This document shows positions 59,889 through 64,000 of a DNA stretch of 64,000 nt, piece by piece; position 1 is the stretch's first letter, and each line of letters starts with the position of its first letter. The position numbers and the translations under genes were made by a program. This stretch comes from Escherichia coli. Its GTDB lineage: Bacteria; Pseudomonadota; Gammaproteobacteria; Enterobacterales; Enterobacteriaceae. The stretch lies in NCBI RefSeq assembly GCF_003334785.1, contig NZ_QOWV01000011.1; one strand, 5' to 3'. Below the pieces are notes generated by a model. It did not search any database. It was not told the origin of the DNA and saw only the letters and a list, made by a program, of their open reading frames with translations.

Positions 59889-59964
59889 GGCCCTTTAGCT
59901 CAGTGGTTAGAGCAGGCGACTCATAATCGCTTGGTCGCTGGTTCAAGTCCAGCAAGGGCCACCA
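59889..59964 (+). tRNA. ileY: tRNA-Ile2 (anticodon CAU, lysidine-modified class)
   Basis: 76 nt ggccctttagctcagtggttagagcaggcgactCATaatcgcttggtcgctggttcaagtccagcaagggccacca. Confidence 0.9.
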
Positions 59965-60714
59965 AATCATTATTTACGTATCAGGAAGAGTTAAGGGTAC
60001 AAGGGGTACTCGATGGCGGTCTATATTTCATGACTAACGCCATTTCAAGGAAGAAGTGCGGTGGGTGGTTTCGAATGAGGGCTGGTGTTTTGGTACGTGG
60101 CACGCCACTGCAATGTATTTATCCATCAGTACTCATTCAAAAGTACCTGGAAAAAATGCCTGCTATGCCAAGCGGGCAAATTGCTTACATGTGGAATTAA
60201 GTAATTAACGATAAAGCCAGAGTATTATCATTTATTATACCCCTTCATTTAATCAGGTTAATTACTCAAATCACTGAACTATTCTCTGTTCGCTCACTGA
60301 TGATAAGTGAGTACCACAACCAATGTATGTAGAACAATGCCGTAGAGTAAGGATGAAATGTCTCTGCCACGCCTTAAACATCTACTACTGACCAGAACAC
60401 CCGCCGCAGGCAGATGAGTTTTGTGAGCGTTACAGGAGCGTGGCTATGCTCATTAACCAACGCTATTGAGATATAAATTTCTAACACTTGAAAAACGATT
60501 TTCACTAATAAATTATAACGGTTTTTTTTATCATACAGCGAAATAACCTTTTGTTTATTAAATTTAACATTCCTGTGCTAATTTAATTAAAAGTTCCATG
60601 CGTAGCAAGTGAAGCAGTTAATGTCAGTAATTGTCTCAAATGAGCGTTTTTTTATAGTGACAAACAGTAATAACATTAAAAATAGCCATGTAGACATTAA
60701 TTGAGGAATAGACA

Positions 60715-62088
60715 ATGTTAGTTAGTAAAAGCAACGGATTTAACGCTAGCGCAGTTTTGGGTAGTGGAAGTTATAATGAAAATAAATCTTCTAAACACAT
60801 GGAGCTACTAGCTCATAGTATTTTAAAATTAATTTGTAAGGAAGCTGCATCAGAGACGTATCGCGGTGCTCTTGAAACTTTACAAAAAATGATGTCTGAA
60901 TGTATATATCAAGAAGGCAACGCCTTTGTCATTATGGGAGCTGGAGAACAATTAAAACGTATTAAATATGAAGTTGGTGAAAATAACTTAAAGGTATTCA
61001 ACGTACACTTTAATAATAATCACGAGTTAGTTAGTTCTGGTGAGCCTGACGTAATATGTTTAAGCAAGCAGGTCTGGGAAAATCTTCTCATTAAACTAAA
61101 GCTGGAAAACAATGAAAATGTGTTTTCTGAAACTAAAAAATTATCGAATAAAAATAATGCCGATCAGTTTTTTGAATGCGCTAAAAGAAATGAATAGAAC
61201 CTTTTCGATAATATAAGAAAAAGTGATTTTCATGTTGGTTTACTTAAGCCAAGTAGTACGCGTAGTGTTATTTTAGAAACGCCGCCAAATGTCTGTATGG
61301 AATCACGTAATTCATATGAAAACAAAATAGATGAGATTTCATCTTTGTCAGAGTCAAAGGAACACCCCATAGATATTCAAGAAAAAAAAGATGCGTTTGT
61401 GAATGAGTTCAAGGGGGTATTATTTGATAAAAATACAAGGTCTTCAGAGCTTCTGTTTAATTTTTATGAGTGTTGCTATAAGTTTTTACCAAGAGCTCAG
61501 CCTCAAGATAAAATCGATAGCTATAATTCAGCACTGCAAGCTTTTTCCATTTTTTGTTCATCTACGTTGACACATAATAATATAGGCTTTGATTTCAAAT
61601 TATTTCCTGAAGTCAAGCTGTCTGGAGAACATCTTGAAACGGTATTCAAATACAAAAATGGCGATGATGTCCGGGAGATAGCCAAAATTAACATTACTCT
61701 CCAAAAAGAAGAGGGTGGTTTATATAATTTACGTGGATTGGATTTTAAGGGGTGCTTCTTTTCTGGACAGAACTTCAGTAACTATGATATTCAATATGTG
61801 AACTGGGGAACGTCATTGTTTGATGTTGATACTCCGTGTATTTTTAATGCGCCTGCTTACAACAAGAGTAATGAAAAATCATTAAAACCTGTGAGCGAAA
61901 ACGGTTTAAGTGGAGTATTGACTGATCGTAATAATAAAATAAAACTCATCACGGGCGTGGCACCATTCGATGATATTTTATTTATGGATGATGACTTTGA
62001 TGATAGTTCCTCTGAGGATGATCCCGTTGAGAATAGTCCTGTTGTGACTAGTCCCGTTGTATCAAGTTCTAAAAGCAGTTTTCAATGA
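60715..62088 (+). pseudogene. ypjB/ypjC-like reading frame: 160-codon ORF, in-frame TAG (61195-61197), then 263-codon ORF with pentapeptide-like repeats
   Basis: Both track ORFs share one frame, no other stop between 60715 and TGA at 62086-62088; downstream part is 263 aa like K-12 YpjB; AT-rich. Confidence 0.6.
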
Positions 62089-62207
62089 TTAATAAATGGC
62101 AATTTTTACAAAGAGATAATAACGTAGATTGAAACAATATGTATTATTGATTGAGTAAACGGGATTATTCTTCACACTACATCCATTTTAGTGTCACTAC
62201 CAAAGAA

Positions 62208-62245
62208 AAAGGGGCTACGTTTTCATGTAACCCCTTGATTTATTT
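62208..62245 (+). terminator. Rho-independent terminator after the ypjB-like ORF
   Basis: aggggctac-gttttcat-gtaacccct hairpin followed by tgatttattt. Confidence 0.55.
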
Positions 62246-62475
62246 GGTGGGCTGGCAGTGACTGAATTGGTGCTGTAATTGGTTGAAATATTTCATCTAA
62301 TGTCTGGTTCAACTTTCCTTAGCTGCCTGAAAGTTTTTTGATCTTACCCAGCAATAACAGCGTTACGGTGCACCACGCCTGACTGAAGAACTGCGTGCTC
62401 AGGGTTACCACTTCAACGTAAAACCGTGGCAGGAGGTCCGGACTGAAAAAACTGGTCAGGACATCATCGGCAGGG

Positions 62476-62660
62476 AACGCACTGCTAGTCTGTAAACTGA
62501 ACCGACTGGGGCGCAGTATGTGGCATCTTGTCGTGCTGTTGGAGGAGCTGTGCGAACGTGGTATTAACTTTCGTGCTCTGGCCCAATCTATATTTGCCCA
62601 ACAATGGGGGGACGAATGCTGTAAAAGTAAAACAATCTGCGATCTCAAAGTTATTGTGTG
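62476..62660 (+). pseudogene. pinH: Serine recombinase (Pin/Gin/Hin DNA-invertase) remnant
   Basis: Translation [40 protein letters not shown] resembles the invertase core (VVWKLDRLGRS...LRERGINFRSL); catalytic N-terminus and C-terminal HTH absent. Confidence 0.7.
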
Positions 62661-62999
62661 ATTTTTATGTGAGCAGAAGATATTCATCAGAAACGATTAT
62701 GTAAATCATTTTATTTTGCCAACGGCCTCATTGTCGAAAGAAAAGAATACGCCCGTATTTCCTGAATGGATTGACTTTTTTATCCAACCACACTTCAGCG
62801 CACTGCGTTTAAAAAATGCCTCATTCTTATGCGGAATATCATCATTTCATCATGATGTCTTTGATGAGCGGTGAACACAATACACTTGCGCTGTCTCTTC
62901 AGGATGAATCCCCTGGTCTGGTGCCTGTGGGCTGATGTTGCAGCAAAGCTAAGGTCGCTTAAACGCTACTCAGTATTCACTTTTCAGAGGATGAAATTT

Positions 63000-64000
63000 A
63001 TGAACAGGACCAGTCCCTATTATTGTCGCCGCTCAGTACTTTCCTTATTGATATCTGCCTTGATATATGCCCCGCCCGGGATGGCTGCCTTCACTACTAA
63101 TGTTATTGGTGTGGTAAACGATGAGACTGTAGATGGCAACCAAAAAGTGAATGAACGAGGTACAACAAATAACACTCATATTATCAACCATGGCCAGCAG
63201 AATGTTCATGGCGGGGTATCTAATGGAAGTCTTATTGAATCTGGTGGATATCAAGATATAGGAAGTCATAACAATTTTGTGGGGCAGGCTAATAATACAA
63301 CCATTAACGGTGGCAGACAGTCAATTCATGACGGGGGTATTTCCACAGGTACGACAATCGAGAGTGGCAATCAGGACGTTTATAAAGGGGGTATCAGCAA
63401 TGGAACGACAATTAAGGGCGGTGCTTCACGCGTAGAGGGAGGGAGTGCGAATGGAATACTCATTGATGGTGGTAGCCAGATAGTAAAAGTTCAAGGGCAT
63501 GCTGATGGTACAACGATAAATAAGTCTGGCTCTCAGGACGTAGTACAAGGAAGTCTGGCAACGAACACAACCATAAATGGTGGTCGACAGTATGTTGAAC
63601 AGAGCACAGTAGAAACAACAACCATTAAAAATGGCGGTGAGCAAAGAGTATATGAGAGCCGTGCGCTGGACACGACGATTGAAGGCGGAACTCAGTCTCT
63701 GAATAGTAAGTCAACGGCAAAAAATACGCATATCTATTCTGGTGGCACGCAAATTGTTGATAACACCAGCACCTCGGATGTTATTGAAGTTTATTCTGGT
63801 GGCGTGCTTGATGTTAGTGGTGGTACGGCAACAAATGTTACCCAGCACGATGGTGCAATTTTAAAAACTAACACTAACGGTACGACGGTGAGCGGTACGA
63901 ATAGTGAAGGTGCATTCTCCATCCACAATCACGTGGCAGACAATGTGTTGCTGGAAAACGGTGGTCATTTAGACATAAACGCATATGGTTCGGCAAACAA
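63000..64000 (+). CDS. ypjA: Autotransporter adhesin-like protein YpjA, N-terminal part (continues past window end)
   Basis: MNRTSPYYCRRSVLSLLISALIYAPPGMAAFT signal peptide then repetitive G/T/N-rich passenger; in-frame alternative ATG at 62991; no stop before window end. Confidence 0.85.
   Translation, partial: MNRTSPYYCRRSVLSLLISALIYAPPGMAAFTTNVIGVVNDETVDGNQKVNERGTTNNTHIINHGQQNVHGGVSNGSLIESGGYQDIGSHNNFVGQANNTTINGGRQSIHDGGISTGTTIESGNQDVYKGGISNGTTIKGGASRVEGGSANGILIDGGSQIVKVQGHADGTTINKSGSQDVVQGSLATNTTINGGRQYVEQSTVETTTIKNGGEQRVYESRALDTTIEGGTQSLNSKSTAKNTHIYSGGTQIVDNTSTSDVIEVYSGGVLDVSGGTATNVTQHDGAILKTNTNGTTVSGTNSEGAFSIHNHVADNVLLENGGHLDINAYGSAN

Follow-up and report, generated by a model that had tools for sequence, protein, structure and literature searches.

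The ileY tRNA gene of Escherichia coli as a probable passenger of an accessory mosaic between glaH and ssrA

Introduction

Does a transfer RNA (tRNA) gene that is followed by AT-rich, decayed genes anchor these genes, or does it travel together with them? The question arises in a stretch of 64,000 nucleotides (nt) from Escherichia coli (NCBI RefSeq assembly GCF_003334785.1, contig NZ_QOWV01000011.1), hereafter the window, where the tRNA gene ileY (59889-59964) is followed by the interrupted ypjCB frame, by pinH, a fragment of a serine invertase gene, and by the beginning of the autotransporter gene ypjA. The initial annotation, made from the sequence of the window, interpreted these genes as a degraded island that had been integrated at the 3' end of ileY and bordered the core genome exactly there. 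A tRNA gene beside AT-rich decayed genes mimics the textbook tRNA-anchored island, which calls for caution, as in the population comparison described below the tRNA gene behaves as cargo. We consider it probable, at roughly 70%, that the DNA on the ypjCB side is the distal half of an accessory mosaic of 10.65 kilobases (kb) lying between the glaH promoter and a terminator on the ssrA side, that ileY is a passenger of this mosaic and not its anchor, and that the traffic of mobile elements through ssrA produced at least the ypjB-pinH junction. The mosaic would comprise ygaQ, ileY, ypjCB, a hybrid scar of the ssrA type, the pinH fragment and ypjA.

The region itself is already known and annotated in the best-studied bacterial genome, and it is not a new kind of system. 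The interval 56000-64000 is 100% identical to several E. coli chromosomes of the K-12 type and of commensals, and 99.96% identical to MG1655, whose orientation is the reverse of that of the window. Read in the orientation of the window, the MG1655 annotation lists gabD, lhgD, glaH (csiD), ygaQ (pseudogene), ileY, ypjC, ypjB, pinH (pseudogene) and ypjA, followed past the window end by psaA (annotated as a displaced 14-nt 3' fragment of ssrA), the cryptic prophage CP4-57, ssrA and smpB. The MG1655 interval from ileY to ypjA (b2652-b2647), adjacent to CP4-57 at ssrA, contains the same genes and pseudogenes in the same order, and there is no material difference from the window apart from a few bases, such as those encoding YpjA residue 51. 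All features listed in the initial annotation (a tRNA-Ile gene, the cut ypjC/ypjB frame, the invertase fragment and the start of ypjA) are indeed present, the coordinates of pinH being slightly shifted. The corrected boundaries, the scar and a conserved non-coding block, all described below, add detail and leave the understanding of this well-studied region unchanged.

Boundaries and distribution of the variable segment

In a sample of 5,426 complete E. coli genomes, at least 80% of the interval 56000-64000 is present in 2,860 (~53%). The alternative is exemplified by strain 104, where glaH is followed after ~680 base pairs (bp) by ssrA, and ygaQ, ileY, ypjCB, pinH and ypjA are absent jointly. 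The homology between strain 104 and K-12 breaks at window position 56940, just past the glaH promoter, and at position 28137 of the K-12 comparison locus (L001), the latter break coinciding with a terminator hairpin 10 nt after the ypjA stop codon. Between the breaks strain 104 carries a 333-bp filler with no K-12 counterpart, hence the layout of the empty haplotype is glaH, the filler, a 160-bp ssrA trailer and ssrA. Given these two breaks, the variable unit comprises 10,649 bp in K-12 (2,778,137-2,788,785; L001 28138-38786), and ileY is situated in the middle of it. The part of this unit contained in the window is 56941-64000, and in window coordinates it would reach ~67589.

The empty arrangement was observed in 1,100 genomes (~20%), and the filler is single-copy in 1,104, including O25b:H4-ST131 and O2:K1 extraintestinal pathogenic E. 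coli (ExPEC), which we take to be members of phylogroup B2. The filler and the block essentially never occur in one genome: with at most four exceptions, the 1,104 genomes with the filler have an uninterrupted run of glaH, filler and ssrA, and therefore the segment cannot also be there. The rest, about a quarter of the genomes, have partial deletions mediated by insertion sequences (IS) or other insertions, for example IS5 in NCTC10444, IS3 in VTB96775v and IS1 in E308. In the comparison among strains suggested in the initial annotation the content does vary, ~53% carrying the block and ~20% having the filler in its place, but the boundary with the core, initially placed at the 3' end of the tRNA gene, lies at ~56940 on one side and at the ssrA-side terminator on the other, with ileY inside the indel. 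A breakpoint at the tRNA end is seen only in genomes with another island inserted there, as in strain TUM1881 (see below).

When the occupied and empty haplotypes are compared, the identity of the glaH-proximal flank (56600-56940; L005 20601-20940) is 88-92% and that of the glaH gene itself 92-94%. A flank divergence of this size seems high for E. coli core genes. It hints at old alleles, or at import or introgression from outside around the hot spot.

Nucleotide composition and codon usage

The GC content is 52.7% in the core part of the window (1-56700) and 38.0% in the part belonging to the block (56941-64000). AT-rich DNA had been thought to start right after the 3' end of ileY. In fact the GC profile falls from ~54% to 36% at ~56.5-56.9 kb, 3 kb ahead of the tRNA gene, and the 500-nt window with the lowest GC content (59250-59749, 30.4%) is upstream of ileY. 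Along the block the content changes stepwise, from 36.1% on the ygaQ side (56941-59888) to 39.8% in the ileY 3' flank, 34.0% in the ypjCB segment (60287-62182), 43.8% in the scar together with pinH (44-45% being the overall range of 62183-64000) and 44.7% in the 5' end of ypjA contained in the window; the whole ypjA gene, at 49.2%, is near the core value.

Codon usage follows the same pattern. There are 12-23 AUA codons per 1,000 in ygaQ, ypjC, ypjB and ypjA versus 3.5 in 27 core open reading frames (ORFs) of the window, an enrichment of 4-6 times. Hence both comparisons proposed in the initial annotation, of GC content and of codon usage, separate the region from the core as they would for a tRNA-anchored island, but the deviation is seen on both sides of the tRNA gene. 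An additional AUA-reading tRNA beside AUA-rich genes would make sense. Both spacers flanking ileY contain H-NS and RpoD sites found by genomic SELEX (systematic evolution of ligands by exponential enrichment; PMC3946193), and the H-NS sites are consistent with silencing of the AT-rich genes.

On the other side of the boundary, the interval 51000-56700, containing the glaH-lhgO-gabDTP operon, has a GC content of 57.5%, with up to 61.6% per 500-nt window, compared with 52.7% for 1-56700. Therefore, the AT-rich block abuts unusually GC-rich DNA.

The ileY gene and its attachment site

The ileY gene (59889-59964, plus strand, 76 nt) encodes a tRNA-Ile2 with anticodon CAT; it was found by ARAGORN, scores 73.8 bits with the Rfam tRNA model, is annotated in RefSeq as tRNA-Ile(CAU), and is intact in this strain. 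The body of the molecule matches tRNA-Ile2 and not tRNA-Met, as 74 of 76 nt are identical to K-12 ileX. The two differences, at positions 6 and 67 only, are compensatory, an acceptor-stem U-A pair replacing the C-G pair of ileX. This pair (window 59894 and 59955) is U-A in the window, U.G in NCTC10444 and C-G in both ileX and the Escherichia albertii ileY (compared copies at L003 23889-23964, L011 6599-6674 and L091 599-674). The CAU anticodon of ileX and ileY is presumably lysidine-modified by TilS and reads AUA. The ARAGORN call of tRNA-Met was rejected, as the ileX-like body with a CAU anticodon identifies tRNA-Ile2. The CAT anticodon is a recurrent annotation trap: the tRNA-Ile2-like genes of lambdoid phages are mostly labelled tRNA-Met, and the same misannotation was noted in strain Crooks (PMC3032704). 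An ORF at 59871-60200 with a match to PHROG 23857 was discarded as an artefact, the matched residues being translated tRNA.

Matches to 59889-59990 include tRNA genes of many lambdoid phages (~83% identity) and 90 places in plasmids. The tRNA-Ile2 copies of lambdoid and Shiga toxin (Stx) phages and of islands likewise represent an extra AUA-reading tRNA within AT-rich, AUA-rich foreign DNA, but the phage copies are only ~83% identical to ileY, whereas ileX is identical at 74 of 76 nt.

Both K-12-type flanks accompany ileY in 2,909 of the 5,426 genomes. Since ileX is the only copy in ~42% of the genomes, ileY is dispensable; it has reportedly been lost independently in strains W and B by IS deletions (PMC3032704). 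Its promoter (TAGATA-16-TATCAT), identified by our own scan, was bound by RpoD in genomic SELEX (PMC3946193).

If ileY were the anchor of the genes downstream, one would look for traces of integration at its 3' end. The gene is a real attachment site: phage 186 uses both ileY and ileX, and SpLE1-like islands move between the two, which have a common attB (PMC3448106, PMC8767318). The attB core extends from the anticodon loop to the 3' end of the gene (59918-59964, plus strand), as follows from a 47-nt duplication in TUM1881. In this strain, a 63-kb tellurite-resistance island begins exactly at the ileY 3' end; beyond the island, homology resumes at window position 59918, giving the duplication, and continues into the K-12-type flank and ypjCB. 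As ypjCB of TUM1881 is thus outside the island integrated into ileY, the K-12 ileY site looks like an empty attB. The block 3' of ileY occurs without a contiguous ileY 5' flank in ~190 genomes (3,095 minus 2,909), which is a rough ceiling on the occupancy of the site.

Besides its ter genes, the TUM1881 island (L002 23965-43964; L004 1-44131) encodes a CbtA/YeeU toxin-antitoxin module and a two-partner secretion system. The end with the toxin-antitoxin module is turned towards the intact tRNA gene, and the integrase is at the far end, near the 47-nt partial tRNA copy.

The initial annotation suggested a search for a distal direct repeat of the ileY 3' end. None turned up: there is no second copy in the 42 kb of K-12 between 2,750,000 and 2,792,000, including the 36 kb from ileY through ssrA to grpE, where a 25-mer with at most 3 mismatches, a 16-mer with at most 2 mismatches and blastn-short with the 47-mer yielded no repeat of at least 13 nt downstream. 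Repeats inside 56500-64000 are limited to chance-level short matches and the internal repeats of ypjA. Using tblastn with five integrases of neighbouring islands and phages, we found no tyrosine-integrase remnant at E-value < 0.1 in the 10,649-bp segment; NCBIfam and PHROG scans of the small ORFs recovered the serine invertase fragment only and no integrase. Compared with the sites occupied by phage 186 or by SpLE1-like tellurite and urease elements, the target is the same tRNA gene, but ileY of the window has no duplication, integrase or element ends, and the genes 3' of it are those that lie outside such an island.

A hybrid ssrA-type scar between ypjB and pinH

The scars of attachment sites detected in the block are of the ssrA type only. 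They are located between ypjB and pinH and consist of two parts, both on the minus strand. The first (62183-62244) is a 62-nt relic of the attP/attL arm of a Fels-2-type (P2-like) phage, with a terminator hairpin at 62209-62236. The second (62245-62320) is a core resembling the ssrA 3' end (62245-62258, GCCAGCCCACCA, psaA type) with a CP4-57-like attR arm (62259-62320).

The CP4-57-like part is supported by a blastn comparison of the window with K-12, in which 62244-62320 match the right end of CP4-57 plus psaA at 57 of 77 nt (E-value 1.3e-6 in the multi-locus comparison, 2e-11 pairwise). The phage part, 62183-62256, is 90.7% identical over 75 nt to positions 9-83 of Fels-2 (NC_010463.1), where positions 1-23 are annotated as a part of attP and are followed by ogr. 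SopEPhi, RE2010, SEN8, Cartapus and 500465-1 also match this interval, the identity over the phage set being 89-91%. Integration into ssrA has been described for Fels-2 and SopEPhi (PMC3448106), and in P2-like lysogens at ssrA, such as E308, the 62 nt corresponding to 62244-62183 directly follow the intact ssrA. The scar is retained at 92-100% identity in other haplotypes of the K-12 type.

A displaced ssrA 3' fragment flanked by element arms is thus found here, as in tandem arrays at the ssrA site (CP4-57 with psaA; Fels-2- and SopEPhi-type elements); in the window the core lies between a CP4-57-like arm and the Fels-2 attP arm. Such a hybrid junction, consisting of a CP4-57-like attR arm, the core and a Fels-2-like attL arm, is what would be expected if a CP4-57-like island had entered ssrA while a Fels-2-like prophage was resident there. 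The block is contiguous with ssrA, ypjA being 160 bp from it in NCTC10444. There are also differences from the known arrays. The scar is only ~140 nt long and contains no genes of either element; the DNA adjoining ssrA is the native trailer and not element DNA, with no integrase of this element beside ssrA; and as the trailer is on the unexpected side, the array would have been rearranged.

In strain E308 (L087 16258-32319; L088 13778-36001) a tandem array at ssrA starts with an intact Fels-2-like prophage, having the GapS1 defence gene just past its integrase, and continues with a 46-nt duplicate of the 3' part of ssrA, the remnant of another island that has an integrase, and the IS1 that deleted ypjA.

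Comparison with other species

We also scanned one genome per species, using GlaH as an anchor. The empty arrangement, including the filler, is found in Escherichia sp. E1V33 (91% identity) and Escherichia whittamii (84%), and the occupied type in Escherichia sp. MOD1-EC7003. E. albertii has an AT-rich ygaQ-ileY module beside glaH, with GlaH 97% and YgaQ 60% identical to those of E. coli. The homology with E. albertii runs beyond the tRNA gene to window position 60286 and is replaced there by unrelated orphan ORFs, which matched no NCBIfam or PHROG family; in the 6 kb available, neither ypjCB nor ypjA accompanies the ygaQ-ileY module.

In ~30 other Enterobacteriaceae, including Salmonella, Citrobacter and Pseudocitrobacter, no tRNA-Ile, transfer-messenger RNA (tmRNA), YgaQ, YpjCB or YpjA was found within 10 kb of glaH, and the conservation upstream of glaH stops at ~56887-56890. 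A core-like composition together with a gene order retained in all Enterobacteriaceae would have argued against horizontal acquisition; what we observe is a non-uniform GC content and an order that is absent beside glaH in these ~30 species.

Possible scenarios of the origin of the segment

In the scenario that we prefer, ileY would be a dispensable second copy of tRNA-Ile2, flanked on either side by foreign AT-rich DNA and gained or lost jointly with the adjacent genes. The ypjB-pinH junction would have appeared in three steps. A Fels-2-like phage would have integrated at ssrA; a CP4-57-like island would then have entered the same ssrA site; and deletions would have removed nearly everything, leaving 62 nt of the phage arm, ~76 nt of the island arm with the core, and probably the invertase fragment. 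The ileY site, empty in K-12, may act as a second landing pad, its target being common with ileX and used elsewhere by phage 186 and by SpLE1-type islands. This order of integrations is a reconstruction, and so is any statement on whether gain or loss of the block came first.

Several observations weigh against this scenario. The occurrence of the occupied type in E. albertii and MOD1-EC7003 means that the block could be ancestral for the genus and deleted in some lineages, and the GC content of the whole ypjA (49.2%) is near that of the core. A plain tandem model would assign to an island the 160-bp ssrA trailer and its terminator, which in K-12 are found between psaA and ypjA; yet the presence of this trailer after ssrA in three species with empty-site strains shows that it is native. 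With a native trailer beyond it, ypjA has native DNA on one side and the scar on the other, so that any reconstruction of the events is tentative. Moreover, pinH is on the opposite side of the scar compared to the invertase of an intact Fels-2-like prophage. Given the placements of the trailer and pinH, one has to assume either additional rearrangements or that the block was already assembled when recombination in the flanks brought it in. An old ileY-anchored island whose distal repeat has decayed keeps a small probability.

The strongest competitor, to which we would assign about a one-in-four chance, is that the 10.65-kb block is old Escherichia DNA, that the empty haplotype (the B2 type, E. 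whittamii and E1V33) arose by deletion or replacement, and that the low GC content is that of old, decaying DNA silenced by H-NS. The ygaQ-ileY pair beside glaH in E. albertii and the occupied type in MOD1-EC7003 agree with it, as do the frequent IS-mediated partial deletions and the fixation of the pinH fragment and the scar across K-12-type haplotypes. However, the empty haplotype has its own 333-bp filler, absent from the K-12 type, and hence is not a simple deletion; this filler is common to three Escherichia species at 84-91% identity; the identity of 60% for YgaQ versus 97% for GlaH in the E. albertii comparison is more easily explained by separate acquisitions, or by very old alleles, than by vertical descent; and the block is absent beside glaH in other genera.

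It is rather unlikely that the whole interval from the ssrA trailer to the glaH promoter, with ileY and ygaQ, entered through ssrA as a single old island or as a tandem array of islands. The block does abut the ssrA trailer and contains a displaced ssrA-like core, and ssrA is a proven hot spot, occupied by CP4-57, Fels-2-like prophages and other integrase-bearing islands. Against such an origin, the interval from the scar to glaH yielded no third ssrA-like core in a scan that allowed substitutions only and was blind to diverged copies, psaA being among those it missed. Furthermore, ypjA has the native trailer on its ssrA side, ygaQ-ileY of E. albertii is not accompanied by ypjCB or ypjA within the available 6 kb, and the blocky GC content (34%, 40%, 44% and 49%) suggests several origins.

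With a similarly low degree of confidence, one may speculate that the block and its 333-bp alternative form a very old polymorphism kept or exchanged across Escherichia, in which the passenger tRNA supplies AUA decoding and plants a second ileX attachment site beside ssrA, while 60062-60286 would be a small RNA gene or a regulatory site. If so, a new landing pad for 186- and SpLE1-type elements would have appeared right beside the ssrA hot spot.

Finally, the original proposal that ypjCB, pinH and ypjA are one island that entered at the ileY 3' end and lost its integrase and distal repeat by decay is improbable. In its favour are the genuine attachment site in ileY, the high AT content, strain variability and partial inactivation of the genes 3' of it, and the difference in content between E. 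coli and E. albertii more than ~320 nt downstream of ileY. Against it, no ileY 3' repeat of at least 13 nt exists in the 36 kb downstream and no integrase remnant was found, the AT-rich zone and the presence-absence polymorphism include ileY itself and 3 kb 5' of it, the TUM1881 ypjCB flank is outside the island integrated in ileY, a 227-nt block ~100-320 nt 3' of the tRNA gene is common with E. albertii, and the attachment-site scars are of the ssrA type. What stands of that proposal is that the region is accessory, foreign and decayed, as indicated by 38% GC, three stops in ygaQ, the TAG codon in ypjCB and the pinH fragment; the anchoring at ileY and a core boundary at the 3' end of the tRNA gene are not supported.

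The conserved block downstream of ileY

The block shared with E. albertii (60062-60286, K-12 2,785,440-2,785,664; 227 nt) is non-coding and unannotated in K-12. It is 85% identical between the two species, compared with 67.6% for ygaQ DNA, and a stretch of 48 nt (60171-60218) is invariant. The block is single-copy in 3,095 of the 5,426 E. coli genomes. Together with the hybrid Fels-2/CP4-57 scar (62183-62320), it could be added to the K-12 annotation.

The minus strand of the block contains a promoter-like site (60261-60234) and a terminator-like hairpin (60173-60158). The putative 84-nt RNA transcribed from this strand folds no better than shuffled sequences (z = 0.1), and the block has no Rfam match. 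A change in the terminator stem that had looked compensatory ceased to do so in a longer register of the hairpin. A coding role is also improbable: in a candidate ORF of 39 amino acids (aa), ~10 of 13 substitutions change the amino acid.

Genes of the segment

Three of the protein-coding genes, ygaQ, ypjCB and pinH, are dead in this strain, whereas strain R32_14_1F is an example with intact ygaQ, ypjCB and ypjA. The pseudogene ygaQ (57077-59329, minus strand, K-12 annotation) belongs to the alpha-amylase family. The intact NCTC10444 protein aligns over its full length of 750 residues with the window in a single frame (tblastn, 96.5% identity); since the window has four ygaQ ORFs in the same frame, there are three in-frame stops. 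Among 5.8 billion proteins, relatives of YgaQ with identity above 35% are confined to Escherichia, with 93-98% in E. coli and 60% in E. albertii (L011 7166-9409), and the next matches are at 32-34%.

The ypjCB frame (60715-62088, plus strand) is split into ypjC (60715-61197) and ypjB (61297-62088), which are in the same frame. They are separated by one TAG codon at 61195-61197, where intact alleles have AAG or CAG, so that the interrupted frame recognized in the initial annotation is one frame cut by a single stop. ypjC and ypjB match the NCBIfam family NF050179 (YpjCB) at profile positions 1-160 and 218-465, respectively, and other E. coli commonly encode an intact YpjCB of 449-485 aa. The only Pfam domains, DUF5507 and DUF5508, coincide exactly with the K-12 ypjC and ypjB fragments. 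All named YpjCB matches are from E. coli, except for one record labelled "Enterobacteriaceae bacterium", and no homologue was found in 50,697 phage records. An AlphaFold2 model of YpjCB was unusable (mean predicted local distance difference test score, pLDDT, 38.6), the alignment being shallow, with alleles 79-97% identical to the query.

The pinH pseudogene (62422-62661, plus strand, K-12 annotation; homologous part ~62425-62595) is a remnant of a serine invertase of the Gin/Hin/Pin type. It had been recognized as such from the start, with its beginning placed ~50 nt too late, at 62476 (end 62660). The match to Gin residues 39-95 (57 residues) has an E-value of 4.7e-12, and the match to PHROG 125 (DNA invertase) 5e-15. 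In DNA comparisons, pinH has 79.5% identity with the tail-fibre invertase gene of the E308 prophage, and the invertase genes of Mu-like and P2-like phages match it at 76-83%. A complete invertase, such as Gin of Mu, Cin of P1, Pin of e14 or Hin, has an N-terminal region with the active-site serine and a C-terminal DNA-binding helix-turn-helix domain; pinH has neither and retains the equivalent of Gin 39-95 only. It is a fragment in every strain examined, and a repeat search of 56500-64000 revealed no invertible segment or inverted repeats near it.

The window ends within ypjA (ehaD; 63000-64000, plus strand), an AIDA-type autotransporter adhesin gene of which the 5' third (codons 1-333 of 1,526) is present. 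The translation of 63000-63998 shows a signal peptide followed by imperfect AIDA-type repeats, as in the N-terminal and passenger parts of type Va autotransporters, confirming the start of a large autotransporter noted initially. The C-terminal beta-barrel would be encoded beyond the window, according to the RefSeq annotation of the 1,526-aa K-12 protein and the literature. The gene remains intact in this strain; it ends 160 bp from psaA in K-12 and, in NCTC10444, which lacks CP4-57, 160 bp from ssrA. It has been linked to biofilm formation (PMC9289746, PMC12547504). At residue 51 (63148-63150), the sole difference in the translated part, the window encodes Asn and MG1655 encodes Asp.

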